Source: Alphaproteobacteria bacterium
GTDB taxonomy: Bacteria; Pseudomonadota; Alphaproteobacteria; MPNO01; UBA830
Reading direction: 5' to 3'
Length of the DNA: 64,000 nucleotides
NCBI GenBank assembly: GCA_964291215.2
Contig: OZ219790.1
Location: forward strand, 2,176,001-2,240,000
A program made the position numbers and the translations under genes. This document shows positions 12,131 to 63,534 of the stretch, piece by piece (position 1 is the stretch's first letter; the number at the start of each line of letters is the position of its first letter). The notes under the pieces were generated by a model. It was not told the origin of the DNA. It saw only the letters and a list, made by a program, of their open reading frames with translations, and did no database searches.

Positions 12131-12132
12131 CG

Positions 12133-15100
12133 ATGCGCATCGCGAGGCTGGAGCTTGCCCGCTACGGCCATTTCACCGACCGCGTTCTGGAGTTTCCCGA
12201 AGGGGCGCAGGACTTCCATGTCGTGTTGGGCGCCAACGAAGCCGGCAAGTCGACGGTGCTTGCCGCGATAGAGGATCTGTTGTTCGGGATTCCGCAGCGC
12301 TCACCCTACAGGTTCCTTCACGACTACCGGGAAATGAGGATCGGCGCCACGATCGAGAATGCGGCCGGCGCGTTTTCCTTCTTTCGCAGAAAGGGCAGCA
12401 GCGACTCGCTTGTCGACGCCGCGGGCAATCCCGTCGCCGGTGGCGAACGCCGGCTCGGATCGCTGCTAGCCGGAACCGACCGCGCCTTCTTCGAACGCAT
12501 GTTCAGCCTCGACCACGGCCGACTCGAGGCCGGCGGCCGGGCCATACTCAATTCGAAAGACGACGCCGGGCAGGCGATCTTCGCGGCTGGCGCGGGCCTC
12601 GGCAGCCTGCGCGCCGCTCTTGACGAGATAACCGAGGAGGCCGACGGCCTGTGGGCCCCGAGACGGGCCCAGCACCGCGAACTCTACCAGGCTCTCGACA
12701 GGTGCAGGGAGACGGACAGGGCGCTTCGCGAAGTGACGTTGACGGCGGACAGCTGGCGAAGCCTGAAGCGCGCCCTTGACGGCGCGGCACAGACCCATGA
12801 CGGGATCGAGGAGGAGTTTCGCAGAACCTCGGCCGAACTTCGGCGCCTGTCGCGCATCCGGCGGGTTTATCCGGATCTCCGCCGCCGCGACGTGATCGAG
12901 GCGAAACTCGGGGAACCGGGCGCCCCGGCCCTTCTCCCCGAGGATGCAGGAGAGCTGTTCGACCGCGCGCAACGCCAGCTCTCCGAGGGGGGCGCCAGGA
13001 TGGAGACCCTGGCGGAACAGCTTGCCCAGATCCGTGGGGAGATCGACAGGCTTGTCTGGGACGAGAAGCTGATCGAGCATGAACCGCGTGTCGCGTATCT
13101 CCACCGACAGAGCATCGAGATCATGCCGGAAGTGACCGATCTTCCGAAACGGGAAGCCGAACTCGCAGTCCTTGAGGGCGAGGTACGGCGCTTCGCGGCC
13201 GAACTCGACTGGACGGACGCGGATGCGGAGGATGTGGCTGGCAGAATCCCGCCGCGCGCCGCGGTCCAGGACGCGCATACGCTGCTTCAGGCGCGGGCCG
13301 CCCTCCAGACGGACCTGGACAATCGGCGCGAGGCGCTCGCTTCGGCAGCAGCCAGGCAATCCGAACTGCAGCAGCGGCGCGGGGAAGGCGGCGCACCGGC
13401 GGACACGACAAACCTGGCAGCCGCCATAACCGCCGCGCGCAGGAAAGGCGATATCACAGCGCGGCTGCAGAACGCGGAAGAGGATGTGGCGCTCGCCGAA
13501 CGTCGAACGCGGGATATCCTCGCCACCCTCGTCCCTGCAGTTGCCGACGAGCGGCGGGCAGCGGAAATGCCAGCACCATCGGGATCCGCGATTCAGGCGC
13601 ACGGCCGCCGGAACGACGGGATCGAGAGGGAACGTCAGGAGCTGCAGCGAGAGCGGGCCGAAGCCGAACGGGAGATCGGGCGGCTGCGCGCGGACCAGGC
13701 GGTGCTGCAGAACGACGGGCAGACAATATCCGCCGCCAACCTCGAGAAAGCGCGCAGGCGCCGCGACGACCTCTGGGAGCTGGTCCGGCTGAACTATATC
13801 GACGGCGCGTCCGGGACGAAGCCCGTCATGCCCGTCGACGCGCCCACGGATCCCGCCGCCGCGATGGAAGAGGCCATGCGAACTGCCGACCGGCTTGCGG
13901 ACCAACGCTTCGACACGGCCGAAGCCTCTGCCCGGCTCTCCGAGATCGCGCAGGCAATCACGGTCCGCGAACAGGAGCTTGCGGACATGGAGGAGCGCGA
14001 AAAATCCCTCGACCAGCGGCAACGGACACTCGACCACCAATGGCAGGCCATGTGGGACGGCGCGCCATTCGACCCGTTGCCACCCGACGCGATGGAACAG
14101 TGGATCGAGAGGAGGGACGACCTCGCAGCCGCCGTCGCCCGCGCACAGGACGCGGACCGGGATCTCGCGGTCGCGCGCCGGGCTGCCGACGATGCGAGAG
14201 CGGCCATCGTCGGCGAACTGGCGGCGCTGGACGAAAACCCTCAGACGCTTGACGGAGTGCCGCTGAACCTGGTCGTCGAACGCGCGGACATGCTCAGGGA
14301 ACGGCTCGACTCGGAAGCACGCGAGATCACCGGGCTCGACCGGGGGCTTCGGGAGGTCGGCGCGGAGATCAACCGCCTGCAGGCGGAACTCGAGCGTGCC
14401 CGGGACGCGGTGGGGCGGTGGGAGAACGGGTGGGCGGAGCAGCTCGCAAAACTCGGCTTGCCGGCCGACATATCGCCCGACGACGTCACGGCCCGGATCG
14501 ACATCATCGACCGGATCCGGGATCGGATCGAGCCGATCCGGGAGCTTCGCGACCGCCGCATCGGCAAGATCCGGCGCGACATCGAGACCTTCGAGGCCGC
14601 CGTCAAGGCCACCGTCGCGGAGCTCGCAGACGATCTCGCGGAACGGCCCTGCGGAGACGCCATTCATGAACTGATGCGGCGCACGGATGAGGCCCGAACG
14701 AGATCCGAACAACGTCGCACGCAACTGTCGAAGGCGGAGGATGTCGCGAAACGAATCGCAGACCTCGAGCGCGACCTGGAACAGGCTCAGGCCGGAATCA
14801 GCCATCTCATGCGCCAGGCGGGAACCGACACTCCCGAGGGCCTCGGAGACGCCATCGCGCGGTCGGACCGGCGGCGCTTGCTCGAACGGGAACTCCGGGA
14901 TATCGACGACCGGCTTGTCCGGGCAGGCGACGGGCTTGCGCCTGACGAGCTCCGGGCCGAATGCGCCGGCATCGATCCGGACGGGGTCGCGGCGCTCGAG
15001 GAAAGCTGCGAAGCACAACTGAAGGAGGTCAACAACCGGAAGGCCGACGCCGCCGTCGTCCTGTCGGAAACGCGGAAGGAATTCGAAAAGGCCGGCGGCG

Positions 15101-15672
15101 GCGATGCCGCGGCGAGGGCCGAGGCTGGCCGCCAGCAAGCCCTCGCTGAAGCCGGCCGAATCGCCGGGCGTTACGTCCGGGCGGGCACCTCGGAAATACT
15201 GCTCAGATGGGCCATCGACCGCTACCGGCGCGAAAAACAGGGACCACTCCTCGCGCGTGCGGGGGAGCTGTTCCGGATCATGACCCGGGGATCGTTCGTC
15301 AGACTCCGGATCGAATACGACAACCGCGACAGGCCGGTGCTGGCCGGCGCAAGGGCGGACGAGCAGACGGTGGAGGTCGGCGGCATGAGCGACGGCACGG
15401 TTGACCAGCTCTATCTCGCCTTGCGCGTGGCCGCGCTCGAGGAATATCTCCGGCAGGCGGCCGCGCTGCCGTTCGTCGCCGACGACCTCTTCATCAATTT
15501 CGACGACGAAAGGGCGGCGGCCGGCCTCGAGGTGCTCGCGGGCCTGGCGGAGGAAACGCAGGTCCTGTTCTTCACGCACCACCGTCATCTCGTCGACCTC
15601 GTGCGGGAGATGTTCGGGCCCGAGATGTCGGTGGTGATGTGCGCGGCGCAGAATCGGACGGAGCCGGCGTGA
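12133..15672 (+). CDS. YhaN family SMC/Rad50-like ATPase with long coiled coil
   Basis: Walker A GANEAGKST, long coiled coil, signature MSDGTVDQLYLALR, ADDLFINFDDER, FTHH. Confidence 0.9.
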   Translation: MRIARLELARYGHFTDRVLEFPEGAQDFHVVLGANEAGKSTVLAAIEDLLFGIPQRSPYRFLHDYREMRIGATIENAAGAFSFFRRKGSSDSLVDAAGNPVAGGERRLGSLLAGTDRAFFERMFSLDHGRLEAGGRAILNSKDDAGQAIFAAGAGLGSLRAALDEITEEADGLWAPRRAQHRELYQALDRCRETDRALREVTLTADSWRSLKRALDGAAQTHDGIEEEFRRTSAELRRLSRIRRVYPDLRRRDVIEAKLGEPGAPALLPEDAGELFDRAQRQLSEGGARMETLAEQLAQIRGEIDRLVWDEKLIEHEPRVAYLHRQSIEIMPEVTDLPKREAELAVLEGEVRRFAAELDWTDADAEDVAGRIPPRAAVQDAHTLLQARAALQTDLDNRREALASAAARQSELQQRRGEGGAPADTTNLAAAITAARRKGDITARLQNAEEDVALAERRTRDILATLVPAVADERRAAEMPAPSGSAIQAHGRRNDGIERERQELQRERAEAEREIGRLRADQAVLQNDGQTISAANLEKARRRRDDLWELVRLNYIDGASGTKPVMPVDAPTDPAAAMEEAMRTADRLADQRFDTAEASARLSEIAQAITVREQELADMEEREKSLDQRQRTLDHQWQAMWDGAPFDPLPPDAMEQWIERRDDLAAAVARAQDADRDLAVARRAADDARAAIVGELAALDENPQTLDGVPLNLVVERADMLRERLDSEAREITGLDRGLREVGAEINRLQAELERARDAVGRWENGWAEQLAKLGLPADISPDDVTARIDIIDRIRDRIEPIRELRDRRIGKIRRDIETFEAAVKATVAELADDLAERPCGDAIHELMRRTDEARTRSEQRRTQLSKAEDVAKRIADLERDLEQAQAGISHLMRQAGTDTPEGLGDAIARSDRRRLLERELRDIDDRLVRAGDGLAPDELRAECAGIDPDGVAALEESCEAQLKEVNNRKADAAVVLSETRKEFEKAGGGDAAARAEAGRQQALAEAGRIAGRYVRAGTSEILLRWAIDRYRREKQGPLLARAGELFRIMTRGSFVRLRIEYDNRDRPVLAGARADEQTVEVGGMSDGTVDQLYLALRVAALEEYLRQAAALPFVADDLFINFDDERAAAGLEVLAGLAEETQVLFFTHHRHLVDLVREMFGPEMSVVMCAAQNRTEPA

Positions 15673-22861: not shown

Positions 22862-24493
22862 ATGGAGCATCGACACATGCGCACCGTCGTTCGGGCCCGT
22901 ATCGACGAAAAGACCAAGCAGGAAGCAGCCGCCGTAATCGACGCGATCGGCCTCACCGTGTCCGATGCCTTCCGCCTGATGATGGTGCGGATTGCGACCG
23001 AAAAACGCCTGCCGTTCGAGCCCCCGGTGCCGAACGCGGAGACCATTGCGGCCATGGAGGCCGCGCGGCGTGGCGACCTGGCCACGGTCGACGATGTCGA
23101 CGGCTTGATGGCCGACCTTCACGCGGACGATCAGAGGACCGCGGTCTTCGAACAGGATTACAGGCGCGAGAAGAAGGGCCGATGCGCCAGGACCGCCGAT
23201 GCCGAGCTCGCGCATGTCGTAGCCGAGCTGGCGGAGGACCGGCCGCTCCCGCCGCACCATCGCGACCGTGCGCTTGGCGGGCAGTGGAGGAACCACCGGG
23301 GCTGCCATGTTCGGCCCGCCACGGTCCTGATCTTCCGCAAGTCCGACGCCGAACATGTGGATCTCGTGTCTTGTCATTCATAAAATGTCGGATAAAGGCG
23401 TTTGAGTTTCACGCGGGCATCGTTGGTGGTGAACTGCCAATCCACCTTGGCCTGAATGCGGTCGCCTGCCAGGCGGCGACTTCCCGGCGTAACACCTCGA
23501 TGCAGTCGATGCGGCGGTTCAGGCGGATCATGACGTTGAGTTCCACCACGTTCAGCCAACTGCCGTGCTTGGGGGTGTAGACGAACTCGAAGCGGTCCCA
23601 CAGGGCCTCGTCCGGCGGGTAGGCCTCGTAGAGGGCGCCGGGGAGTGTTGAGATTGTCCATCACCAGGGTGATGGTGGTGGCATCTTGGTAGCGCCCGGC
23701 GATGTCGGCCAGGAACTGCGCGATCTTGCGCCCGGTTACCTTGGTCATGCGCTTGCCGGCCAGGGGTTCCGTGAAGACGTTGCAGGTACCGCAACGTCGA
23801 TACTCATAGTCGTTACGCCCGTCCCGGCGCCATGGCGATCGGTTGCCGTGTCTCGCCGGTCGGGGCGTTTCGTCCATGCAGACCACGGGGAAAGCGGCGG
23901 GGCGGCGATCGAGCACCTTCGCTGCGGCGAAGTCGGCGTTCCCTTGAGGAGGAATCACCCACCCGCTGCCATGGCTTGAGGCAGTTTTTTTAGAACACGC
24001 CGCACCGTCTCGTGTGACACGGTATCAACAAGCTCGACAACGCGGTCGGCCAGCAGCCGCAACGACCATTGCGCGTAACCCTCAGGCGGTTCACCACAAC
24101 TCAGGGCCACGCGCCTCGAAGGTGCCGTCGGCTTTTCGCATATAGGTAGGACGGCGCCGGCCACCCAATGCCGCCTCCAGCCCCTCGAAACGCTTCTTTA
24201 CTCGGTCTACTTTGCGCATGCTGATGCGCAGAATCTCGGCAATGACCTTCCCGGTCATCTGGCATTCATTGAACGCGCTCTCGTCGCAGTTAAGCAGGGC
24301 GTTGATTACCTTTTGCGACAGGTGCGAGCCCTTGATCTCCGAAAGTTCTGCCCGTTCGTCCAGGGTCACCACGCAGCGTTTCATACTCCGACCTCCATCC
24401 CGAATGGACGGACAGTCTAGCACCAAATGTACGACATATCATTGCTGACATAACACTAGTGCGTCTCGGCCCGCACGACAACTCGGCCTCTGA
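22862..24493 (+). pseudogene. DinJ/RelB antitoxin fused in frame to a YafQ toxin relic, interrupted by IS630
   Basis: VVRARID..GLTVSDAFR..PNAETIAAMEAARRG runs into DRALGGQW..GCHVRP..LIFRK; toxin end LVRLGPH resumes at 24456 after the IS. Confidence 0.8.
23367..24456 (-). mobile_element. IS630 family element, degraded
   Basis: WSLRLLA..SHETVRRVLKK, A-run slippery site, VCMDE, DYEYRRCG, MDNLNT, WQFTTNDARVKLKRLYP; imperfect TIR GTGT(C/T)(T/A)TGTCA; CTAG target at 24456-24459. Confidence 0.88.
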
Positions 24494-25043: not shown

Positions 25044-26843
25044 ATGCTGCATCTCGTTGGCGAGACTATCGACAAGCACCGCGCGCAATATGGCGTGGAG
25101 ACCGGCAGGCTCGTCCGGATCATGCGGGGCATTTACGTGGCAGCAGAGGATGACGCCGACGCCGTCCTGTTCGATCATGCGCTGCGAATCGCTGCCTATC
25201 TGTACCCGAACACCTATCTTTGCGGAGCCAGCGCCGAGCGGCTCGCGCCGACGCCGGACAGGCGTCTATTCCTGAGTGGCCGACGCATCGCGCGTACGCG
25301 GCTGCGCGATCTGGAAATCATACAGACGCTCGCCCCTGACGCTCCGGAAACAGAGACCGTTCAGACCGTCGACCCCTCGGGCGACCTGAGGGTCAGGCGC
25401 TCGGCGCTGCGCTTTCGCTATCTGGAATCCTTCCGGCGGCGCAGTGAAGCTGGCGCCGCCATGACGATCGAAATGCAGACCGACATCGCCGCCCGTCTCG
25501 TCGAAGCCGCTGGCGGTAAACAGGGGCCAATCATCGAGTGTCGGCGACTGGCTCAGGCCAACGGGTGGCAGGCGGAGGCTGGACGGGCCGAAGCATTTTT
25601 CACCACACCACTCCGAGAGGCGCCGCAGCGGGCGACGCCGCTTCATGTCGGATGGCACGGCGAGGAGATCGGCGTCCTGTTTCATGACGGATCGGCTTGG
25701 CGCTGGGAGCCGACCGCCGCCAAAGGCGCAACACCGGTTCGGACCGGTGCGCCGGGCCGGCTTCCGCCCTTCATCGAAAGCCTGCTGCCGGAAGGATGGC
25801 TCGAACACGTATTGAAGCCAAAGTCAGAGCGGGAGCGAATATCCACCGGCAAGCGCTACATGTCGAACATCGTCGTCTCGGAGAACCCGGACGATCTTCG
25901 GGCTCTCCCCGCGGACGTGCTGGAAGGACAGCTCGATACATATGCTGACGGGAGCGTGTTCGCCGGCAGCTACGCCGGACCCGCGCCTTCCTTCGACGAG
26001 ACGCTGGAAGACCGCATGGCCGCCTTGTACGGATCGACGGTGACGCCGCGCCTGTCGGGCGTTCAGATCAAGGCGCCCATGAACCTCTCGCATGACGGTG
26101 TGTTGCGGTCGGCCGGGGATCGGGCCTTCACGCACATCCTTAAGCCTTCTCCGGGTGCCGGTTTTGAGGATCTCCCTCTGGTTGAAGCGGCATGTCTGGC
26201 GGCCGCTCGAGCCTGTGGGCTCGAAACGGCAGCCCATGCGATCGTCTCGATGCCGGATGATCTCCCCGACGCGCTGCTGGTCGAGCGCTTCGATATCCGG
26301 CGAGATCGTAACGACGGTCGCAGGATGGCGATGGAAGACATGGCGTCCGTTCGCGGCGTCGCGCCTTCGGAGAAATACGACGGTTCCATCGAGCAGGTCG
26401 CACGGGCGCTCCGGGGCGTCTCGAGCGACGCCAACGTGGATCTCGCAGCGTTGCTTGGCCGCACCGTGTTCGCCTGGCTCATAGCCGATGGCGACTTTCA
26501 CCTGAAGAACATGGCCGTTCTGAGGGTGGCGCCCGATGGTGCGGAAAATTTTGCATCCGTCCGGTTCGCGCCGACCTACGATGCCGTGACAACGCGGGTC
26601 TTTCCGGGGCTTGAAGACGACGACCTAGCGCTCTCGCTGGCGGGCAAACGTAATCGACTGTCGTCCAGCGACTTTGTCCGGGCGGGCGTGACGATGGGCA
26701 TTAGTGCGGAGTGGGCTCGCAATATCGTCGAGTCTTTGTGTGCTCGCCTGAGCACCCACCTCAGCGACCTCGGCCCTGGGTCCGATCGCGTCGATCGAGC
26801 GATCGAGATCTGGAAGAAGCGAATCGAGATCACCACCGGCTGA
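25044..26843 (+). CDS. HipA family Ser/Thr kinase with ~190-aa N-terminal extension (AbiEi/HTH-like) and HipA N-terminal (HipS-like) domain
   Basis: LPPFIESLLPEGW, RLSGVQIK, HILKP, LLVERFD, DGDFHLKN, FAPTYD; N-terminus GRLVRIMRGIYV. Confidence 0.88.
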   Translation: MLHLVGETIDKHRAQYGVETGRLVRIMRGIYVAAEDDADAVLFDHALRIAAYLYPNTYLCGASAERLAPTPDRRLFLSGRRIARTRLRDLEIIQTLAPDAPETETVQTVDPSGDLRVRRSALRFRYLESFRRRSEAGAAMTIEMQTDIAARLVEAAGGKQGPIIECRRLAQANGWQAEAGRAEAFFTTPLREAPQRATPLHVGWHGEEIGVLFHDGSAWRWEPTAAKGATPVRTGAPGRLPPFIESLLPEGWLEHVLKPKSERERISTGKRYMSNIVVSENPDDLRALPADVLEGQLDTYADGSVFAGSYAGPAPSFDETLEDRMAALYGSTVTPRLSGVQIKAPMNLSHDGVLRSAGDRAFTHILKPSPGAGFEDLPLVEAACLAAARACGLETAAHAIVSMPDDLPDALLVERFDIRRDRNDGRRMAMEDMASVRGVAPSEKYDGSIEQVARALRGVSSDANVDLAALLGRTVFAWLIADGDFHLKNMAVLRVAPDGAENFASVRFAPTYDAVTTRVFPGLEDDDLALSLAGKRNRLSSSDFVRAGVTMGISAEWARNIVESLCARLSTHLSDLGPGSDRVDRAIEIWKKRIEITTG

Positions 26844-27208: not shown

Positions 27209-27595
27209 TCACAGGGCGCGGGTGCGGCGCCGATACCGGGCCACCATTGGATCGGCGGTCAGGAGCATGAAACCCTTGAGCCGCGCCTGCGCGACCAGAA
27301 CGCGATCGAATGGATCTCCATAAAACGGCAGCAGCAACCCGATCTCTGCCGCGTGGACTCCGGTTGTCCGCAGTTCCGAATAGCCGTTGTCCAGCAGCCC
27401 CTGCCGCAGCAGGCGCGGATCCATTCGGAAGTCGGTGCGCCCGAGCGTGTCCTTGATGGCGACTTCCGAGATCGACACGGCGCTGAAAAACAGCTCCGTT
27501 GCCGGCGATTCGATGAGCCTGCGAACCTCCGCCGACAACCGGTCCGAGCGGACTGCCGACCAGAGCAGGAAATGCGTGTCGAGGCGAAGCTTCAC
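27209..27595 (-). CDS. vapC: VapC PIN-domain toxin
   Basis: LDTHFLLW, SAVSISEVAIK, DPFDRVLVAQA, LLTAD. Confidence 0.88.
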   Translation of the reverse strand: MKLRLDTHFLLWSAVRSDRLSAEVRRLIESPATELFFSAVSISEVAIKDTLGRTDFRMDPRLLRQGLLDNGYSELRTTGVHAAEIGLLLPFYGDPFDRVLVAQARLKGFMLLTADPMVARYRRRTRAL

Positions 27596-27831
27596 TTGCC
27601 GACCGAGAACACGGCCTGGATTTCCCGGGCGCCCATGCTGTCGAAGTCCGGCGGCACCAAGATCCGCCCGGCCAGGAATCCGATCCGGCTGTGGGAGTCC
27701 GGCGTATCAAGGGCAACAACCTGGACCACAGGCTTGCCCGCGCGCGCGATGACGAACGGTTCGCCTTCGGCCGCCATCTTGACGAGACGCAAGAAATCAG
27801 TCCTGGCTTCGTGCATGTTGACGATGCGCAT
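27592..27831 (-). CDS. Phd/YefM family antitoxin
   Basis: VNMHEART..GEPFVIARAGKPV; GTGA overlap with vapC. Confidence 0.88.
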   Translation of the reverse strand: MRIVNMHEARTDFLRLVKMAAEGEPFVIARAGKPVVQVVALDTPDSHSRIGFLAGRILVPPDFDSMGAREIQAVFSVGK

Positions 27832-53217: not shown

Positions 53218-53252
53218 ACCGAAACCAAGAGCGCCTGTCCGGGAAAAAAGGC

Positions 53253-54480
53253 GGTACTGTAACTTGATGTCTGGAAATTTGTCTGAGGTTTGCGCTTTGA
53301 GGCGTTTCACTGGGGGGCTAGCCCCCCCCAGTGAAACGCGGCGCCATCGTACTATCCCATGGAGTTGGAAAACCTTCATGGAGGAAGCGAATGGACCTGC
53401 GACACACTACGACGATCGGGACTGTTTTGGAACATCTGATCGCAAACGGAGCAACGGATCTGGGGCGGGTCTTTGGCCAGCTCTTCGAGCTTGCGATGCA
53501 AATCGAGCGCGAGCAGTACTTGAAAGCGGGCCACCGGACACCGGAGCGACAGGGCCAACGGCTACAAGCGGATCGACACCCCCACTGTTACCGTTCAGGT
53601 GCCAAACGGTCACGGGGACGACCCGTCCCCAGTCGCTTGAACGCGGCCAGCGATCTTCTCGCGCCGTAGCCGAGATGTACATCAAGGGTGTTTCCACGCG
53701 GCAAGATGTAATGCGCGAGTTCGGGAGCCTGTCCTCTTCTCAGGTCAGCCGGACCACCAAGTTGCTCGATGAAGAACTCGCCGCGCAACCGGCCCCTGAT
53801 GAACTACCTGATCCTGGATGCGCGCTACGAAAAAGCCCGCCATGACGGCGTTGTGCGCGATGTTGCAGTGCTCTCGGCCATCGGAATAGGGGCTGCAGGC
53901 ACGTTCTGGGGCTCTCTGTGGCGCTCTCCGAGGCCGAGGTCCATTGGAGAGCCTTCCTGGAAAGCTTGCTAGCCCTGCATGGTACGACCTTCATCGTCTC
54001 GGATGCCGGGCTGAAAGCAGCACGACGCGCGGTGCTGGGCGCGGCGACGTGGCAGCGCTGCCAGTTCCACCTGGCGCAAAACGCCGTGCACCGAACAATG
54101 ACATCAGGAAACGTATTGGAAAACAGCTCGGAGCCATGCGTCCTCACTCCAAACCGCCGAGGCTGAACTGGGCGCCCTCGTGGCCAGCGACAAGCATCCA
54201 GGCTTCCTGGCTGGAAAAGAATGCGGGGCTCGCTGTCTTCACCTTGCCCGATGCTCACCGCAAACGTATGCGAACCTCGAACGGTATCGAGCGACCGATC
54301 CAGCAAGAGCTCAAGCGGCGCACCTCCAAAGTCAGGGTCTTTCCGAACCTCGCCTCGTTGGAGCGCCTCTCAACCGCGGTCCTCATCGACGAAAAATGGG
54401 AAACCGAAACCAAGATCAAATGGGAACAGCTCGATGACTGAGAGTTTCACGAAAATTTCCAGACATCAGGTTGCGTAATC
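53253..54480 (+). mobile_element. IS256 family element, heavily microdeleted
   Basis: TIR GGTACTGTAACTTGATGTCTGGAAATTT / AAATTTCCAGACATCAGGTTGCGTAATC; EMYIKGVSTR, YLILDARYEK, WQRCQFH, RTSNGIER..ELKRRT in shifting frames (53391-54441). Confidence 0.93.
53302..53339. repeat. Near-perfect palindrome in the IS256 left end
   Basis: GCGTTTCACTGGGGGG-CTAG-CCCCCCCAGTGAAACGC-type hairpin centred on CTAG. Confidence 0.9.
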
Positions 54481-55744
54481 GGTCGGGCCGGCGGTACCAC
54501 CACGACTACACCGAAGCCGACCATGTCGAACTCCTTGAACTGGGTCTGCCGTGTCAGGTAATGGTCTCGGGCCGCCCCTCGGCGTTGTACGACGACCTGC
54601 TGCGGGACTGGGCCGCATCGCCGAGCTGCTGGAACGCCCGGCGCTGCATGTCGACGAAACCGGCTTCCGGGTCGACGGCAGGACCCGATCGCTCCATGTC
54701 GTCACCGACGGGACGTGCAAGTTCCTGCATCGCAAGCGCGGCAGGCAGGCGATCGAGGAGATCGGCATCAGCTACACCGGCACGCTGGACTGCCGGGCCG
54801 CATAGCTGGTCTGCGATCAATGCACCCACCAGCTGTGCGGGTCCCACCTGCTCAGGGAACTGACCTTCATCGTCGGCGCCAGTGGCTACCGCCGGGCACG
54901 CGTGATGAAGAAACTGCTGCCTGCCACAGGGTTGACAAGAGTGCATCCAGGACTCTGAACGAGGCCGACCGCCGCAGCGTCATCAAGCGCTACCGGACCA
55001 TCCTGACCCGGGGGCGAAGGAACTGCCTGAAATCCCGCCCCGACAGAAAGGAAAACGCGGACGGATTGCGAACGCGCACAACCTCCAGGAGCGTCTCGCA
55101 AGACATGAAGAGTTCGTCCTGCGCTTCATGAGCGACCCGGACGTCAGCTTCACCAACAACACCGGCGAGCAGAAAATCCGGATGGCAAAGGTCAAGGTGT
55201 CCGGATGCTTCCGAACCCGGCTCCACGCCGAGGCCTGGTGCCGAAGCTCAAGCTATCTCACCTCCATGGCCGCACTCGGCTACAGCCCGCTCGTCGCCAT
55301 CCGGGTCGCACTCGCCGGAAACGCCGCCGACATGATCAAGATGCACAACGCCAAACCCGCCTCTGCGGAGGGGCGAGGAGATACCCCGACGCCAGGAAAG
55401 ATCCGGCGTGCCGGGCGCGGTGCCTGACCGCAATGAGCCGCGTCGGGATTCTCGTGACCTCCCGGAAACCGCGCTCCGAGCGGGTCCCGCTTCCGGACGG
55501 TACGACGCATGGTGTGCCGGCACAGCGCGAGAAGGAAACAGACCTTCGGATTGGTCTCGACATGGTGCGAATCGCGCGCAACGGCGCTCTCGATGTGGCC
55601 GTGACATTCAGCCAGAATCAGGATTTGGCGGAGGCCGCCCAGGAAGTTCACACTAACCGAATCGATCTGCAGTGTCAGATCTCCACGAAAACCCGTTCGT
55701 TGCCTACCCCGACATCAAGCCGGAACCAGGGGGTGAGCAGTTAC
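54481..55744 (+). mobile_element. IS66 family element, 3' part, with NYN-domain fragment before its right end
   Basis: LHVDETGFRV, HQLCGSHLLREL, FTNNTGEQKIRMAK; end GGGGGTGAGCAGTTAC; 55651-55744 is an inverted near-copy of 38566-38660. Confidence 0.85.
55380..55650 (+). pseudogene. NYN/LabA (PIN-like) domain fragment
   Basis: REKETDLRIGLDMV..DVAVTFSQNQDLAE resembles the EKGxD..D..SxDxD motifs. Confidence 0.6.
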
Positions 55745-57097
55745 TCTCCATGAATGTTTACAACTCCATGGGATAGTACGATGGCGCCGCGTTTCACTGG
55801 GGGGGCTAGTAGTCTAACATTATTGGATTGATGAATATAGTGACTTCAGTTTCGTCCGGGCATCCTTCGTCGTGAAACGCCAGTCGACAGTGACATCGGC
55901 CGCATTGCGGCGCTCAACCCACGCCACGGTCTCCCGCAGCATGGTGTCGCGGTCGGAAATGCGTCGCCGAAGGCACTGCCGCGACAGCGCGCCGATCTCG
56001 ATTTCGGCCATGTTGAGCCAGCTTCCGTGCTTCGGCGTGTAGCGAAACTCGAACCGCTTTCGTACCCGCCTCTTCGGGCTCGAAGGCTTCATACAGTGAC
56101 TGTGCGTGTTCAGATTGTCCAGCACGATCTTCCTGTCGGGGAAATGGTCGTCGGCAAGCTCCCGGATGAAGTGCGCCCAGTCCCGCGGCGGTCGGTGACT
56201 TTCACCGTGCGCCAGTTCTCGTTGGGCGCAAAGGCCAGGAAGAGGTTGGCCGTGCCGTTGCGCTCATATTCATAGTCGACCACCTCCGGCTGACCGGGGG
56301 ATGCGGGTTTCCTGCTGCCGGCTGGTCTCCAGCACCTCGTCCCTGGCAAAGTCCCGCTGATAAATGTCAAGCACATCCGCCGCCACGAACTGTGCGCTCC
56401 GGTGCGGTGGAATGCACCAGTACTGCTTCAGCCACGGCTTGATCTCTTTTTTTTAGCGTCTTCCTGACCGTCTCTTCTGAAATGCGCTCGACAATCTCCA
56501 TCTCCACCAGACGGCCGGCAAGCAGCTTCAGCGTCCACAGCCCTCGGGCGGGGACGAACAGTGCGACCAGCTTCGCCTCCATCGCCCCCGTTTTGGCCGG
56601 CGGTTCACCTGCTCCTTGCGGCTGAGGGCGGCCCCTCCAGAACGCAGCGCTTGCGCAAACGCTCGACCGTCGCCGTGCCCAGCCCTTGCGCAATGTCGGC
56701 ATCGACAAGCCGAGCGCCCCCTCAACATCAGGATTTGTGCCCGGCGCCAGGCAGCCCCGGTGCCGTCGACAATTGCCTTCAGATCCTGGCGCTCCTGCGC
56801 TGAAAGGGTCACGCGGTAGAGCTTCCTGCCCCGAGAGTTGGCCATATGCGCCGCTTCTGTCATTGCGCCGAAGACCTGCGGGCATGCCCGTTGTCCGGAC
56901 CTGCGCATGGGGCTGCCTGCCTGTTCGGCATCTGCCCGTGTGGATATCGGTACTGTCCAGATTCCAACGAACGCCGACACGGAAATACTACCCACAAAAA
57001 AACCATCAATACAATGCCGGTGGACTACTAGCCCCCCCAGTGAAACGCCTCAAAGCGCAAACCTCAGACAAATTTCCAGACATCAAGTTACAGTACC
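55745..57097 (-). mobile_element. Second IS256 left end (inverted), split by IS630
   Basis: 55745-55809 plus 57028-57097 together are the reverse complement of about 53253-53383. Confidence 0.9.
55810..57027 (-). mobile_element. IS630 family element, full span, degraded (copy B)
   Basis: CTAG on both sides (55806-55809, 57028-57031); TIR core TAGTAGTC; YRVTLSAQER, WTLKLLA, A-run slippery site, DDE-region motifs. Confidence 0.92.
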
Positions 57098-57130
57098 AAG
57101 TGGGAAGTGGACCAAGTGGGACCAAGTGGG
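57095..57130. repeat. Short tandem ACCAAGTGGG repeats
   Basis: ACCAAGTGGG-AAGTGG-ACCAAGTGGG-ACCAAGTGGG. Confidence 0.8.
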
Positions 57131-57225: not shown

Positions 57226-57633
57226 CTACGCGATGTCGCCCCGCGCTGAGCCTAGGCGCCCTGTCCCCTCGATCTCCACCAGCATTTCCGGTTTCGCGAG
57301 CGCAGAGACCTCGACAAGGGAACAGGCCGGAAAATCACCCTCGAAGAACTCCCTCCGCGCCCGCCAGACAGCCTCGCGAAACGATATGTCGGTCACGAAA
57401 ATTGTCAGCTTCAACACGTCGTTCATGGATCCGCCAGCCGCATCCATATAATGCTTCATCTTGTCGAATATGAGCCTCGCCTGCTCATACGGATCGGCCC
57501 CCTCGATCGTGTCCCCGTCAAGTGCGCGGGACGTTAGGCCAGCGACGAAGAATAGGTCGCCGCTGACGAGAAAGTTGGACCAAGTCTGTGGCGGGGGTTC
57601 GGCCACGTGTTCGCTGTATATGCGTTTGCGCAT
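57226..57633 (-). CDS. RidA/YjgF family protein
   Basis: FVAGLT, VLKLTIFVTD, PACSLVEVSALAKPEMLVEIEG. Confidence 0.9.
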   Translation of the reverse strand: MRKRIYSEHVAEPPPQTWSNFLVSGDLFFVAGLTSRALDGDTIEGADPYEQARLIFDKMKHYMDAAGGSMNDVLKLTIFVTDISFREAVWRARREFFEGDFPACSLVEVSALAKPEMLVEIEGTGRLGSARGDIA

Positions 57634-58129
57634 GGCGCCTTTCTCCTTCTGTTTGTCCCGAGCGGCCCGAATCGACCGGCGCGCACCACAGCCGCCTGTA
57701 GTCGTCTACCGTAACCGGGCGCAAAGTCCGGGGCGAGGACAGCATCACGGAATTGACCCCGCGCCGCTCCCCGCCCGTCGATCATCAGGGGCCCGATGCC
57801 ACGGACGCGATCTTCTACGCCGCCGCGTCCGAACTCGCAACACGCCGCGCGATGGCGACAGCAACGGTCGCAGCCTCCGGCACGGTCCGAGTGACGAATA
57901 AACGCTCGTCCGGGCCGGCCGCGCGCCTACACCGGGCGCAGGCAACTCGCGTCCAAAACCGCGTGCGTTCGAGGCGCGGGTTCGGATAGGGTGCAGCCCC
58001 CGAACCGGCACCCTCCGGGGGCGCCGGCCGCCCGATCCCGCACGAAATGTCACCCATGCCCGTTGACGCCGCCCCCGACCGTTCCCGCCCCCACTTGACA
58101 CCGAACCCCCGGCCGGGAGGCCGCCTGAG

Positions 58130-61100
58130 ATGGTAGCCGCACTCGGCAGGCCGGGCCGGAGCGAGTATTATCTCGACAGTCAGCAAACGCTCCACGGCCC
58201 GCTTGACGGCGCCAGGGGGCGGCGCGAGGCCGCGGGGCGGTGGTGGAACCCGGCTGGCCTGTTCGGCCTCGCCGACCGAGATCCGGTCGAGGACGCCGCG
58301 TTCGCCAACCTCCATCGCGGCGTCTCCCCAGACGGGCGCACAGCGCTGGTGCGGAACGCTGGCGGACGCCGACGCAGCGGCATCGATCTTGTGTTCCCCG
58401 CCGACAAGTCGGTCTCCGCGCTGTGGGCGATTGCCGATCCGGAGACCGGCCGGCTGATCGAGGAAGCGCATGATGACGCCGTCCGTCTCGCGCTCATCGA
58501 GATCGTCGCGAAACACGCGATGTCGGGCGTGAGGATCCATATCGGCACCTGGGTGGAGTTCGTTCCCGCAGACGTCATGGGAGCCACGTTCCGGCACGGG
58601 TCGAGCCACGCCCACGACCCCCATCTTCACACCCATTGCGTGATCTTCAACCTTGCGCGGCTTCGCGACAGCAATCGTTGGTTCGCCACAACCAAAAACG
58701 CTCTCCATTGCTGGCTGAGGGCCGCGGGAGCGGCCTACCGGCACGCACTGGCCTGGAACCTCCGCGAGCGCATCGGCGTCCGCTGCGAACCCTACGGCCG
58801 CAACGACGCCCTCATGCGCATCGCGGGCATGCCTCGCGGGCTGATCCGCGAGTGGTCGAAGCGCAAGCAGATGATGGAAAACGCATTGGAGTTGGCCGGG
58901 GTGCAGGCGCGCAGCGCAACAGGCGCACAGACCACGATGATCGCCAAAGCCACACGCGACGGAGGAGACCGGCACCCGGACCTCAAGGAACTCCGCCCCG
59001 TATGGGCGCGTGAACGGAAGTCCTGGGTCTCCGACCCGGCCCGCCTCATGGCCTCGCTGTCGAAGCCCGACGAGCGGTTCCCGTCACCGAGCCGCTACGA
59101 GATCCTCCGTAAGCTGAAACGTGTACCCGACGATCTCGCGGCGCGGCACTCCCCATTCTCCCATCCCGACCTGGTCGAGAGCGTCTGCAGCGTCTCCGCC
59201 GGTTACATCGACTGGCGCGACGCAAGCGGGTGGATCGCGGAGGCAATCCGCCGCTCTGATGTCGTCCGAGTCGACAATCCTGAGCGGTCGCCCGCGGCCC
59301 GCGCCGACCAGATGCATTCGCGGCTTTATGCCCTCGAAAACACCGCCGAATCCGGGAACGCGCTCAGGGAGGCGGCGCGCAAGTTATCCCGGGACGCACG
59401 CTTCGCCGTACCGCAAGCCAGGGTCGAGGAGCGCATCCGGAGCCTCGACGCGGCCGGCTACCCGCTCTCGGCCGACGACATCGCGGCGATCCGCTACGTC
59501 ACATCGGGGCGCCGCATCGCAGTCATCGAGCTCGCGCCCGCGCTCGACCGCAGCCTCGCCCTGCGCCCGGCCGCCGACCTTCACCGCAACGAGGGCTACC
59601 GGGTGATCGGGGCGGCGGCCACGCTCCGCGCGGCGGCCGAGCTCCAGAATGAGACCGGCATCGCGTCGATGCAGATCAACCGGCTCCTGAAGATGAACGA
59701 CAAGCGCGCGCTCGACGACAACCGGGCCTGGGTATTCGTGATCGCCGATGCCGGCATCCTGCTTGAACGCCAGTTCCGAACGCTGTTTGCGCTCGCCGGA
59801 CGCTACTCGGCGAAGTTCATCCTGGTCGCGGAAGCGGGCCAGCGTCCGTCGCTTGTGGCGGCTCCCGGTCTCGGCCTCGTTACCGACGTCACCGGCTGCC
59901 TGCGTTCCTACTACCGACGGCTGCCCGGCGATGTTGTGTCCGAGGCCTTTTCCAATAATCGCGTTCGGCTCAGCAACGGGCTCAGGGAGACACTGGAGCG
60001 CACGGCCGGGGACTGGGACCAACATAGGAGGACCTTTCCCCGAGATTCGGTCGCGGTCGTCGCCCGCACCCGCAAGGAAGAGAAGGTTCTGACCCATATG
60101 CTTCGCACGCGCCTGCTCGGCCCCGCCGCCGAAGGTGCACACGCCTGCATTGAGGTCCACCAGCACACCAAACTCACAGCGTACGGAAAATCCGCGCCGA
60201 TGGAAATCCGGGCCGGCGACCGACTGAGAATCGGCGCCACCCTGTGGGAGGCGCGCCTGTTCCGGGGCTCCGTGGTCACCGTCGAGGACATCGTCCCCAT
60301 CGCGTCAGTCACCGAAGAGACGCGTTTCCTCATCCGCGTAGCGACGCGCGAAGGCCGGCAGGTCGAGTTTTACCACGACGATGTCCGCGACGGGCATGGC
60401 GGCGTCCGCCTCGCGCACGGATACGCCTGCACGGTCGACGAACTGGTCGGCAGGTTCGATCGCATTTTCGCGTTGGCCGACGACGGGTGGCGGCGACACC
60501 AGCTCGAACGCATCGCGGCCTGCTGCCGTGTCCGGCCCCGAATCCATGTCAACCGCGAACAGCTGGCGGCCGCGTTCGGGGCACCGGCCGATGACGATAC
60601 GCTTCTCAACCGCCTGCGCCAGAGCTGGTCACTTACTGCCAGGAGCGGACAACCCTGCAGGGACCAGAAACTCCATCCCGACCGTCACGCCCATGCGGAA
60701 GGATGGCTTATAGCCAATGACGGCGGCGACGGAACGCTGCGGCAACTCGGACAGGACATCGCCCAGGCAAATCTCGACCTCCGTCACGGCGACACGGTCG
60801 CCGCCTTCGCCGCCGGCAGGGCCGCAGTGCTCGAGGAATGGGCGGCATGCCGCGAGCGCATCTCCGTCGACGGAGATGCAGCGTTGCTCGCGCCGTCGGT
60901 CGCCAGAACACTGCGCCGGCACAGGGCGCTGATCGACTCTCTCGAGACCCTGCCGCGGCGGTGGACACCTCTGGTGCAGCGGATGTTCGCGGCACGCGGC
61001 GACCTGGCACCAAACGACATTCGGAAGTTCGCCGCGCTCTACCGACGGCTGCGCGATCAACGGAGGATCGCAGCGGCGCGTCAGCTCCGGAACGAGACCG

Positions 61101-61504
61101 CCGGCGCAGACACCGCTTCCGTCGATGCGTGGCTCGCCGAAGTCGCGCGCCAGCGGCGGTTCCGCACCTTCGTGCTCAATGCCGTGGAGCACAACGCCGG
61201 GCGCGCATGCGAGATCCCGTCATGGCGGAACAGCGTGGCAGACGCCGAGCGGTTGATCGCCCGCGGCCGCGCCATCCTCGCCGCAAGCAGTCTGCCGCAA
61301 ACAGGCGATGCGGGACGCAGCGCGGTGCAAGCCGCCGTGGCGGTGCTCGAAGCGGAGCAGAGAGAAGACCTGTCGGTCCCCGGCCGCAGGCTCGAGCCCG
61401 CCCCCGACGCGGCGCCGCGCCAAGGTCTCGCTGCAGCGTTGGCGCAGGCGCACCGGCAACCCGAGAATCATCGCCTGGCCCGTGAAAGCTCTATCGCCTT
61501 CTGA
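58130..61504 (+). CDS. MobF (TrwC/TraA-like) relaxase with degenerate helicase region
   Basis: N-terminal EYY, DLVFPADKSVSALWA, H..DPHLHTHCVIFN, WSKR; helicase motifs altered (IELAPALDRS, ADAGIL, HGYACTV). Confidence 0.88.
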   Translation: MVAALGRPGRSEYYLDSQQTLHGPLDGARGRREAAGRWWNPAGLFGLADRDPVEDAAFANLHRGVSPDGRTALVRNAGGRRRSGIDLVFPADKSVSALWAIADPETGRLIEEAHDDAVRLALIEIVAKHAMSGVRIHIGTWVEFVPADVMGATFRHGSSHAHDPHLHTHCVIFNLARLRDSNRWFATTKNALHCWLRAAGAAYRHALAWNLRERIGVRCEPYGRNDALMRIAGMPRGLIREWSKRKQMMENALELAGVQARSATGAQTTMIAKATRDGGDRHPDLKELRPVWARERKSWVSDPARLMASLSKPDERFPSPSRYEILRKLKRVPDDLAARHSPFSHPDLVESVCSVSAGYIDWRDASGWIAEAIRRSDVVRVDNPERSPAARADQMHSRLYALENTAESGNALREAARKLSRDARFAVPQARVEERIRSLDAAGYPLSADDIAAIRYVTSGRRIAVIELAPALDRSLALRPAADLHRNEGYRVIGAAATLRAAAELQNETGIASMQINRLLKMNDKRALDDNRAWVFVIADAGILLERQFRTLFALAGRYSAKFILVAEAGQRPSLVAAPGLGLVTDVTGCLRSYYRRLPGDVVSEAFSNNRVRLSNGLRETLERTAGDWDQHRRTFPRDSVAVVARTRKEEKVLTHMLRTRLLGPAAEGAHACIEVHQHTKLTAYGKSAPMEIRAGDRLRIGATLWEARLFRGSVVTVEDIVPIASVTEETRFLIRVATREGRQVEFYHDDVRDGHGGVRLAHGYACTVDELVGRFDRIFALADDGWRRHQLERIAACCRVRPRIHVNREQLAAAFGAPADDDTLLNRLRQSWSLTARSGQPCRDQKLHPDRHAHAEGWLIANDGGDGTLRQLGQDIAQANLDLRHGDTVAAFAAGRAAVLEEWAACRERISVDGDAALLAPSVARTLRRHRALIDSLETLPRRWTPLVQRMFAARGDLAPNDIRKFAALYRRLRDQRRIAAARQLRNETAGADTASVDAWLAEVARQRRFRTFVLNAVEHNAGRACEIPSWRNSVADAERLIARGRAILAASSLPQTGDAGRSAVQAAVAVLEAEQREDLSVPGRRLEPAPDAAPRQGLAAALAQAHRQPENHRLARESSIAF

Positions 61505-61587: not shown

Positions 61588-63534
61588 TCAGGAAGGGCGG
61601 TTTTGCCGGTTCTCCACCAGATCGTCCACCACCGCCGGCTCGGCCAGCGTCGTGGTATCACCAAGCTGGTCGTGCTCGTTACTGGCGATCTTGCGCAATA
61701 TGCGGCGCATGATCTTGCCGGAACGGGTCTTGGGCAGGCCCGGCGCCCACTGAATCAGGTCGGGCGTCGCGATCGGACCAATCTCGCGGCGCACCCACCG
61801 CGCCAGCTCGTCGCGCAACGCATCTGACGGCTCTTCGCCCTCCATCAGGGTGACATAGGCATAGATGCCCTGCCCCTTCACGTCATGCGGATATCCGACC
61901 ACCGCAGATTCAGCGACCTTGGCATGGCCGACGAGCGCGCTCTCCACTTCGGCCGTTCCGATCCGGTGTCCCGAGACATTGATCACGTCATCGACCCGCC
62001 CGGTGATCCAGTAGTAGCCGTCCTCGTCGCGACGACAGCCGTCGCCGGTGAAATAGTATCCCCTGTAGGTCGCGAAATAGGTCTCCCGGAAGCGGTCATG
62101 ATCGCGGAAGACCGTGCGCATCTGTCCCGGCCATGAGTCCGTCAGAACGAGGTTCCCCGAGACGGCGCCCTCGAGGACATTGCCGTCGGCGTCGACGATG
62201 GCCGGCTGGACGCCGAAGAACGGGCGCGTCGCCGAACCGGGCTTGAGCGCGGTCGCGCCGGGGAGCGGCGTGATCAGGATGCCGCCGGTCTCGGTCTGCC
62301 ACCACGTGTCGACGATAGGACAGCGGCCATCGCCGACCACATCGCGGTACCAGAGCCAGGCCTCCGGATTTATCGGCTCGCCGACGGTCCCGAGCAGCCG
62401 CAACGAACCGCGGTCCGCGGCGTGCACCGGCTCGTTTCCGGCGCGCATCAGCGCCCGGATCGCAGTCGGCGCGGTGTAGAAGACGGTGACCCCGTGCTTG
62501 TCGCAGACCTGCCAGAAGCGCGAGAAGTCGGGATAGGTCGGCACCCCCTCGAAGATCAGCGTGGTTGCCCCGTTGGCGAGCGGGCCGTAGACGATGTAGG
62601 AATGCCCCGTGATCCAACCGACATCCGCCGTGCACCAGTAGATGTCGTCCTCGCGGATATCGAACACGTACTCATGGGTCATCGACGCGTAGACCAAGTA
62701 CCCGCCGGTGGTGTGGAGCACGCCCTTCGGCTTGCCTGTGGAGCCCGACGTGTAGAGGATGAAGAGCGGATCCTCGGCGTCCATCTCCTCGGGCGGGCAG
62801 TCGGCCGCGACCTTGGCCATCGCTTCGTGGTACCAGACATCGCGGCCATCGGTCCAGCCGACATCGGCGCCAGTGCGGCGAACGACGACGCTGCCACGCA
62901 CCGACGGGCATTTTTCCAAGGCCTCGTCGACATAGGCCTTGAGCGGGATCTTGCGGCCGCCGCGAACCCCCTCGTCCGCAGTCACCACCAGGCAGGAATC
63001 GGAATCATGGATTCGCCCGGCGATGGATTCCGGCGAGAAGCCGCCAAACACCACCGAATGGACAGCGCCGATGCGCGCACAGGCGAGCACGGCGACCGCG
63101 ATTTCGGGGATCATCGGCAGATAGATCGTGACCCGGTCGCCCCTGCCGACGCCGTTCGCCTTGAGAACGTTCGCAAAGCGGCAGACCTCGCCATGAAGCT
63201 CGCGGTAGGTCAGGGTCCGCGATTCGGCCGGGTCGTCACCCTCCCAGATGATCGCGGCCTTGTCGCCGCGGGTCTCGAGATGCCGGTCGAGGCAATTTGC
63301 CGACGCGTTGAGCGTACCGTCATGGAACCAGCGCACATGGACATCGTCATAGGCGTAGGAGACATCCTTGACCTCGGTGTAGGGCTGCATCCAGCCGATG
63401 CGGCGGCCGTGCTCGTTCCAGAATCCCTCGGAGTCTTCGATCGAACGCCGGTACATCTCCTGATACCGCGCATCGTCGACATGGGCCGTGCCCGCCCATT
63501 CCCTGGGAACCGCGAAGACCTCGTTTTCCGACAT
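61588..63534 (-). CDS. acs: Acetyl-CoA synthetase
   Basis: [51 protein letters not shown]. Confidence 0.98.

Follow-up and report, generated by a model that had tools for sequence, protein, structure and literature searches.

A helicase-dead MobF-derived relaxase fixed in an alphaproteobacterial chromosome and its possible role as a pilot of a co-retained type IVB machine

The window analysed here was a stretch of 64,000 nucleotides (C1:2176001-2240000) from the 6.15-Mb alphaproteobacterial genome G000, which was rich in insertion sequences (IS). Near its right end we found a gene (58130-61504, forward strand) for P0001, a MobF-type conjugative relaxase whose only helicase domain was dead. 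P0001 is a chromosomally fixed descendant of the relaxase-helicase of an integrative and conjugative element (ICE), minus the helicase motifs, the second tyrosine pair, the putative origin of transfer (oriT) and the accessory gene. Domestication in the plain sense, i.e. of a gene that is fixed, selected and not self-mobile, appeared likely. More tentatively, with a probability of about 0.4, we propose that P0001 would act as an ATP-independent pilot that nicks single-stranded DNA (ssDNA) and is fed by a co-retained VirD4 into a co-retained type IVB machine.

The comparison included the sister species (G001), an outgroup (G004), two related genomes (G002 and G003) and a run, X3, with a conspecific contig carrying the gene. 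Paralogue A stands for the gene at 58130-61504 and its orthologues at the ridA-acs site, while B and C stand for further copies. The core clade comprised 13 sequences, namely 12 protein clusters and paralogue C of G000.

Results

A MobF relaxase with a dead helicase

The relaxase open reading frame (ORF) had 1124 stop-free codons and was placed about 5 kb past dnaA-dnaN-recF-gyrB, between ridA and acs. ORF and gene calls bore out the uninterrupted frame that a preliminary description of the window had noted. P0001 matched Pfam TrwC (PF08751) with 168.2 bits (cut-off 25) and NCBIfam MobF (NF041492) with 147.4 bits (cut-off 100), which placed it among proteins with a MOBF domain. Its AlphaFold2 model had a mean predicted local distance difference test score (pLDDT) of 72.7 and a predicted TM-score (pTM) of 0.57. 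The best Foldseek matches of the model were TraI (5n8o, E 1.8e-20) and RecD2 (3gp8, E 4e-15); TrwC was also matched, and the relaxase domain reached a TM-score of 0.75 (normalised by target) against TrwC 1osb. An ESM Atlas search with residues 830-1124 gave a best score of 0.81, a lead only. The first catalytic tyrosine, the aspartate D86 and the three metal histidines of the MOBF active site were present. The HUH motif and the single N-terminal tyrosine pair described earlier were confirmed (Y13/Y14, H156 and D163-PHLHTH169). The features of the locus were as follows.

58130-61504, plus strand: helicase-dead MobF-derived relaxase P0001, paralogue A, 1124 amino acids (ORF, profile matches and AlphaFold2/Foldseek)
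58130-59029, plus strand: TrwC/MobF HUH relaxase domain, residues 1-300 (Pfam TrwC match at 31-296; structure match)
58166-58171, plus strand: first tyrosine pair Y13/Y14, likely equivalent to TrwC Y18/Y19 (invariant in 13/13 of the core clade)
58595-58636, plus strand: metal-binding histidines H156, H167 and H169, H..DPHLHTH (invariant in 13/13)
59528-59554, plus strand: former Walker A, ELAPALDRS, residues 467-475 (alignment with intact relatives)
59744-59755, plus strand: former Walker B, ADAG, residues 539-542 (alignment; fixed in 13/13)
60200-60424, plus strand: beta-rich 2B-like subdomain, residues about 691-765, limits estimated from the model (cross identity)
60500-60529, plus strand: former motif VI region, QLERIAACCR replacing ETIYPAATRHR (alignment)
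61472-61501, plus strand: C-terminal tail RLARESSIAF, which has the family ending S/A-x-x-aromatic and is a putative signal for the coupling protein
57932-57996, plus strand: 65-nt upstream block common to A and B only; likely a promoter or operator, not an ancestral oriT
57226-57633, minus strand: RidA-family gene on the left flank; in the outgroup G004 it is immediately adjacent to acs
61588-63534, minus strand: acs, right flank (profile match)

Alignment with intact relatives verified the loss of both Walker motifs (GAAGSGKTT to LAPALDRSL and VDEAG to IADAG) and revealed damage beyond that noted earlier: GDTQQQ had become AEAGQR, SAQG had become ELVG, YPAATRHR had become ERIAACCR, and about 55 residues including the RRQ motif were deleted. 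Of a C-terminal superfamily 1 (SF1) helicase, P0001 had thus kept the fold and lost both the Walker A/B sequences and motifs III-VI. The second tyrosine pair, equivalent to TrwC Y26/Y27, was missing in all 13 core-clade rows; it was present in one of 17 helicase-dead rows versus 37 of 44 rows with an intact helicase.

Identity between dead and intact relatives was highest in the 2B-like block (0.49), with 0.43 in the relaxase domain and 0.28-0.35 in the RecA-like cores. The family-type tail closed all 12 unfused core-clade proteins, and the region preceding it was the least conserved (14% invariant). Within the core clade, E467, D473 and R474 of the former Walker A as well as ADAG were now fixed (13/13), and Y13, Y14, D86, H156, H167 and H169 were invariant (13/13). 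The active-site invariance was modest evidence by itself because 36% of the relaxase-domain columns were invariant. Since P0001 had a MobF domain but neither the features of a relaxase-helicase nor those of a mobile element, we classified it as MobF-derived.

Inheritance and selection

The sister species held A at the same ridA-acs site, with flanks 93% identical, and in the outgroup acs and ridA were side by side, i.e. the site was empty. For A in G000 and G001 we obtained dN 0.095, dS 0.29 and a ratio of nonsynonymous to synonymous rates (dN/dS) of 0.33 with NG86 (0.27-0.41 in 100 bootstraps) or 0.18 with YN00. By domain the ratio was 0.33, 0.38 (dead helicase) and 0.31. The 13 flanking orthologues of the same two genomes gave 0.05-0.22 (NG86), and two intact-helicase pairs gave 0.10-0.41. 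Between gene A and the conspecific X3 contig, 25 changes were nonsynonymous and 28 synonymous, and the pN/pS of 0.32 differed from neutrality with p = 6e-5; the window's own branch carried eight nonsynonymous versus 15 synonymous changes. The intactness of the ORF was weak evidence by itself because 71 of the 90 sister-genome genes tested were also intact in G000 (two of the 71 matched through paralogues).

The preliminary description had suggested that the gene was under selection for a new role, and had named dN/dS near 1 together with absence from the syntenic site in relatives as the pattern that would argue otherwise. That pattern was not seen. Selection and domestication were supported by the shared site in G001, the empty site in G004 and dN/dS well below 1 in every domain, and also by the loss of the putative oriT and the accessory gene.

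A clade of helicase-dead relaxases

A protein search returned 12 clusters with 50-100% identity and the same motif losses, after which identity fell to 30-38% and the motifs were intact. The core clade was supported by FastTree (1.0; 62 rows) and by the Shimodaira-Hasegawa-like approximate likelihood-ratio test (SH-aLRT 100; six representatives among 28 rows); all tree supports quoted are split-based values. In both trees the clade was nested among intact relaxase-helicases of conjugative elements, and the best plasmid match was 27% identical. A hidden Markov model (HMM) search of 1.84 billion protein representatives found one full-length representative, a single 50% cluster for the core clade. 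Scanning genome contigs with the clade returned only two G001 loci, and a metagenome scan with the clade alignment gave no core-clade locus among the best 80 of 567 (top identity 34%). The comparison of genomic contexts covered members other than P0003 and P0005-P0012, plus the galU fusion in P0007.

According to the tree, the helicase was lost independently at least three times in the family; P0084 represented an independent loss besides that in G002. Other full-length helicase-dead members were P0063 (L032:7755-11477 in G003), P0060 and P0084 itself. A truncated TraI was rejected as the origin of P0001, which derived directly from single-helicase relatives (alignment and tree). In a helicase-only tree all dead relaxases grouped together; this grouping was set aside as likely long-branch attraction.

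G000 contained intact A and C (49% identical) and a shredded B, while in G001 both A and B were intact, B being located at a second chromosomal site, HD-galU. A B-type protein with 64% identity also adjoined galU in another assembly. Up to three clade members occurred per genome, and three clusters shared one longest contig of 5,250,787 bases. The paralogues were 49-76% identical and were located at sites common to different species. In other assemblies, the B-type relaxases P0007 and P0190 read through into galU as apparent fusions of 1473 and 1478 amino acids, evidence that less closely related strains have the B site too; a frameshift or assembly error was possible.

Ancestral elements and a split type IVB machine

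The elements of intact relatives carried a divergent accessory gene of 100-120 amino acids, the motif TCACACCTNTGCAC upstream and, often, a serine recombinase and repC/parAB. Their transfer genes were of type IVB (Dot/Icm-like), with DotA/TraY over the cut-off and IcmL, IcmE, TraQ, DotB, DotD and IcmT weaker, and they also encoded type IV pili and a VirD4/TraG-type coupling protein. Pfam CagE_TrbE_VirB had no match in 5/5 genus genomes; the machine proved to be type IVB. DotA was found in nine of 78 genomes of the order, all nine belonging to the set of 17 genomes that the clade profile matched.

The G000 machine was located in two blocks among housekeeping genes, C1:2349626-2360011 (L170, L171) and approximately C1:2569400-2587500 (L180, L181). 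Both secretion/pilus blocks were syntenic in G001 and about 92% identical. For 28 gene or gene-piece rows of the machine (a 363-aa ORF, which lacked a partner at 70% identity, gave no row), dS was 0.12-0.27, like that of core genes, and dN/dS was 0.04-0.42. The P-loops of IcmB, DotB and VirD4 in G000 matched those of the intact ICE. In G001 virD4 followed dotA, and that copy was lost in G000, which kept an 80%-identical virD4 followed by an ICE-type 195-aa gene and then by relaxase C. Each of the two genomes had one virD4 of the family type, at different sites. The repC/parA/parB and recombination genes of the related element were broken or missing in G000. Moreover, G003 had a helicase-dead solo relaxase (P0063) next to purL as well as a single machine with virD4 at its end; the DotA, IcmB and VirD4 of this genome grouped with those of G000/G001 (support 0.991, 0.996 and 0.998), and P0063 grouped with the core clade (SH-aLRT 97, mixture model, long branches).

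The preliminary description had presented the relaxase as stand-alone, with no coupling protein, type IV secretion system (T4SS), integrase or rep gene nearby. This was correct within the window, where genes were called throughout and selected ORFs were scanned with HMMs, and did not extend to the rest of the genome: one part of the type IVB machine was about 112 kb from the gene and the other about 335 kb, and a paralogue stood behind virD4. The gene was therefore alone only locally, because the secretion machine was intact elsewhere and one paralogue stood right behind virD4. The picture of a lone gene without a partner did not hold, as the cognate coupling protein and the type IVB machine were kept elsewhere in the chromosome under the same selection.

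Directly upstream of icmL (L171:4404-6224; G000:C1 ~2360400-2362200), G000 and G001 both had a gene (dN/dS 0.24) whose 606-aa product contained two RNA polymerase alpha-CTD domains and is possibly a regulator or cargo of the machine. Decayed remains of a same-family element (repC-parB-like and recombinase pieces) were found by rplU at L231:4792-19998 (G000:C1 ~2384800-2400000), and the whole element of G004 also ended beside rplU. In addition, G000 had a separate, complete-looking F-type conjugation cluster (L228, L229; G000:C1 ~845000-869000) with TraI/TrwC-like, TraD, TraG, TraH, TraU, TraC and TraB proteins; it was unrelated and its relaxase was intact.

The putative oriT and hallmarks of mobile elements

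The motif TCACACCTNTGCAC upstream of the intact relatives' relaxases was often followed by an inverted repeat. Within one mismatch, it was present upstream of seven of 11 element-borne relaxases and of none of five solo dead ones. We take it to resemble MOBF nic sites. From this likeness and from its position, a guide also used for pVbh-like plasmids in passages of PMC5675462, we infer that it is a putative oriT. Neither the motif nor the accessory gene was found in G000 or G003.

The 65-nt block upstream of A had one other copy in G000, at the broken B site, and showed no compensatory pairs or covariation among four copies. It was rejected both as a structured RNA and as an ancestral oriT, given that absence of covariation in the four copies. 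Scans for repeats, promoters and terminators around the relaxase gene found nothing above chance. As for an ICE or an integrative and mobilizable element, neither the putative oriT motif nor the accessory gene was found beside the relaxase of G000; no integrase or replicon was called in the window, and the insertion site was the same in G001 rather than variable. As for an HUH transposon of the IS91-like kind, instead of conserved ends and recent copies we found no shared 3' end and no near-identical copies.

The earlier statement that every other mobile gene in the window was shredded was true of the IS pieces scanned (fragments of IS256, IS66 and IS630) and untrue of the toxin-antitoxin genes, which were whole. 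The IS debris was located at 53245-57100 in the gyrB-ridA gap, which in G001 instead held TetR, an anthrone-oxygenase-like gene and one further gene; the last 100 nt of the debris were an IS end present at well over 100 places in the genome. The whole-looking toxin-antitoxin genes (25044-26843, 27209-27831 and 22877-23383) encoded a HipA-like protein of 599 amino acids and a PIN/Phd pair, and included a 168-aa ORF that matched both DinJ antitoxin and YafQ toxin (an apparent fusion). At 10862-15672, the window also contained a metallophosphoesterase paired with a 1179-aa AAA_27 protein, presumably an SbcCD/YhaN-like pair.

Discussion

Proposed function

The helicase of MOBF relaxases is described as required for transfer in a section of PMC12857230. 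In the TrwC work reported in passages of PMC3264647, the Walker A mutant K502T was conjugation-deficient and recombination-proficient, Y18 made the first nick, and Y26F was tolerated in recombination and not in integration. From TrwC genetics, P0001 is therefore likely unable to drive transfer or integration alone and could still nick and join ssDNA. Without Walker A and the second tyrosine, P0001 itself would perform neither rolling-circle transfer nor integration, whereas cutting and joining of ssDNA would still be possible with its first tyrosine and HUH site. The 2B subdomains of TraI are described in part of PMC5422253 as clamping ssDNA and holding translocation signals. As its conservation suggests, the dead helicase may be retained because it clamps ssDNA and provides a translocation signal, much as the vestigial helicase domain does in F TraI. 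VirD4 would then recruit P0001 for export through the tamed type IVB machine, and P0001 would either carry DNA unwound by a host helicase or travel alone.

The kept tail, the 2B-like block, the virD4-linked paralogue and the matching trees indirectly suggest that P0001 may be a type IVB substrate, i.e. pilot or cargo of the tamed machine. A broader version, possible though doubtful, is that a whole conjugation system was dismantled and tamed: the helicase-dead single-tyrosine MobF family would serve as cargo for the type IVB machine, the pili and the one virD4, nicking chromosomal or foreign ssDNA and piloting it, or acting as nicking effectors, into neighbouring cells.

Several observations weighed against these proposals. 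G002 held two helicase-degenerate relaxases (L030:7521-12266 and L031:9694-14460) with the oriT motif and the accessory gene in ICE-like elements whose T4SS blocks were 99.3% identical over 10.8 kb. The two relaxases were near-identical and had lost the second tyrosines, and their helicase had been lost independently; a third element beside them had an intact helicase. Helicase loss thus recurred, also on mobile-looking elements, and therefore a dead helicase alone was no proof of a new role. The preliminary description had regarded close homologues with the same motif changes on ordinary mobile elements as evidence against domestication; the G002 relatives went part of the way, being on oriT-bearing elements but with different motif changes. 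Furthermore, in the rpoB tree the neighbour of G000 was G004 rather than G003 (bootstrap 100; no rpoB match was obtained from G001). Given the relaxase and machine trees, the lineage of dead relaxase plus machine may thus have moved horizontally after the death of the helicase; either an old tamed system would have been replaced in G004 or an element without a helicase would still have been moving. Other points concerned selection. The dN/dS of A was above that of core genes (0.05-0.22), and its dS of 0.29 was at the top of the flank range (0.10-0.29). A and B of G001 were patchily nearer each other than A to A, hinting at gene conversion. In X3, a 2-nt insertion after 58329 broke the frame of gene A (one contig, depth 69), and B was shredded in G000, so that single copies were dispensable. 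Finally, selection on the machine does not show that P0001 is its substrate.

Alternative explanations

According to one unlikely alternative, P0001 would be a helper in trans that provides the nicking or pilot half, while a visiting intact relaxase-helicase or a host helicase unwinds and the machine moves co-resident elements or chromosome pieces. Two TraI molecules are described as loading on either side of nic, as transesterase and helicase, in parts of PMC5422253 and bioRxiv 10.64898/2026.02.20.706640, and solo chromosomal relaxases are common, with 402 in 1,207 chromosomes according to a portion of PMC3158045. Degenerate and intact relaxases occurred together in G002, all with the oriT motif, and G001 had, in addition to A and B, an intact element with repC, a recombinase, the oriT motif and a relaxase (no T4SS in the 35 kb read). 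However, in G000 and G003 (99% complete) the queries used found no intact-helicase family member, besides no oriT motif or accessory gene, and the described requirement for the MOBF helicase in transfer also argued against a helper.

It was improbable that P0001 is an intracellular blocker. Such a protein would bind or nick the oriT when a related element enters the cell and, as it could neither unwind nor terminate, would poison the establishment or onward transfer of that element. Free TrwC at a recipient oriT lowered the integration of incoming TrwC-DNA, in the authors' explanation given in PMC3264647, and G000 and G003 had no live family element, G000 having only the decayed remains at rplU. 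Nevertheless, two intact dead copies coexisted with an apparently intact family element in G001, and a blocker would not account for the conserved tail, for the paralogue linked to virD4 or for the agreement between the machine and relaxase trees.

A relic under weak or fading selection was also improbable. In this case, the constraint would date mostly from the time of mobile helicase-free elements and the stranded copies would now be in the course of being lost, in line with the shredded B, the frameshifted A of X3, the disagreement of relaxase and host trees, and the degenerate relaxases on ICE-like elements with a helicase-region dN/dS of about 0.7 (few sites). However, dN/dS was below 1 between same-site orthologues and between conspecific strains, i.e. 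after stranding, the changes on the window's own branch pointed the same way, and intact full-length copies existed across 12 protein clusters with 50-83% identity.

A self-moving single-gene element, in which the relaxase would use strand transfer to copy itself elsewhere in the manner of an HUH transposase, was very improbable: several paralogues did occupy unrelated sites, A and B had only the ORF and the 65-nt block in common, and the TrwC helicase is dispensable for integration in the TrwC system (passages of PMC3264647), but there were no recent copies (paralogues 49-76% identical at sites common to species), no shared 3' end and no upstream block other than at A and B, and TrwC integration needs the second tyrosine that P0001 had lost (same source).

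Comparison with known systems

TrwC of R388 had in common with P0001 the HUH relaxase fold, the first tyrosine, the DxxF aspartate and the 3-His site, followed by one SF1B helicase-fold domain. Unlike TrwC, P0001 was chromosomal and vertically inherited, without helicase motifs, the second tyrosine pair or an oriT, accessory or coupling gene in cis. With the helicase motifs and the second tyrosine pair lost, P0001 resembles a natural K502T plus Y26F double mutant of TrwC. TraI of F/R1 also has a helicase fold without ATPase motifs behind its transesterase, with a conserved 2B subdomain (described in part of PMC5422253). In contrast, TraI has a second, active helicase, whereas the only helicase of P0001 was dead and came from single-helicase relatives.

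The intact ICE family was found in the same order (G004, element a of G002, G043, G047, G053 and G065). Its relaxases were 34-40% identical to P0001, with the same C-terminal helical region and tail and the same pil/dot/icm-like/virD4 machine. Unlike P0001, this family kept Walker A/B, usually the second tyrosines, TCACACCTNTGCAC and the divergent 100-120-aa accessory gene, and the G004 and G001 elements additionally had the serine recombinase and repC/parAB.

Solo chromosomal relaxases and MOBless T4SS are reported as common in a part of PMC3158045, the latter being similarly conjugation machines stranded in a chromosome with no neighbouring relaxase. The chromosomal vbh remnants of Bartonella are similar too, in that relaxase parts are reused as secretion signals; unlike the present case, passages of PMC5675462 describe them as deteriorating and without Dtr genes and coupling protein. 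In G000, purifying selection acted on the machine and the coupling protein alike, and also on entire relaxases whose nicking sites were intact. Agrobacterium VirD2/VirD4 provides a helicase-free single-tyrosine pilot relaxase that serves a repurposed T4SS. VirD2, however, is a plasmid-encoded protein of MOBP type that has known border sequences and works with a VirB machine. In the open-access literature (supplements and subscription papers aside) we found no account of a selected multi-copy MobF clade with its sole helicase dead and a split type IVB machine.

Significance

In the described conversions from conjugation to secretion, the relaxase was lost or only its signal survived. In the G000 lineage, whole relaxases with the nicking site kept and the motor dead appear to have been retained, duplicated and selected with the machine. 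Because the genus still contains intact ancestral elements, it offers a testable series from ICE to tamed system. The proteins are natural separation-of-function relaxases that can show what a MobF protein does without its helicase and second tyrosine, and the split type IVB/pilus blocks merit study alone as a tamed secretion system. If the broader version is true, a MobF helicase and a Dot/Icm-like machine would have given rise independently to a VirD2-like system, which would be a living intermediate between conjugation and effector secretion.

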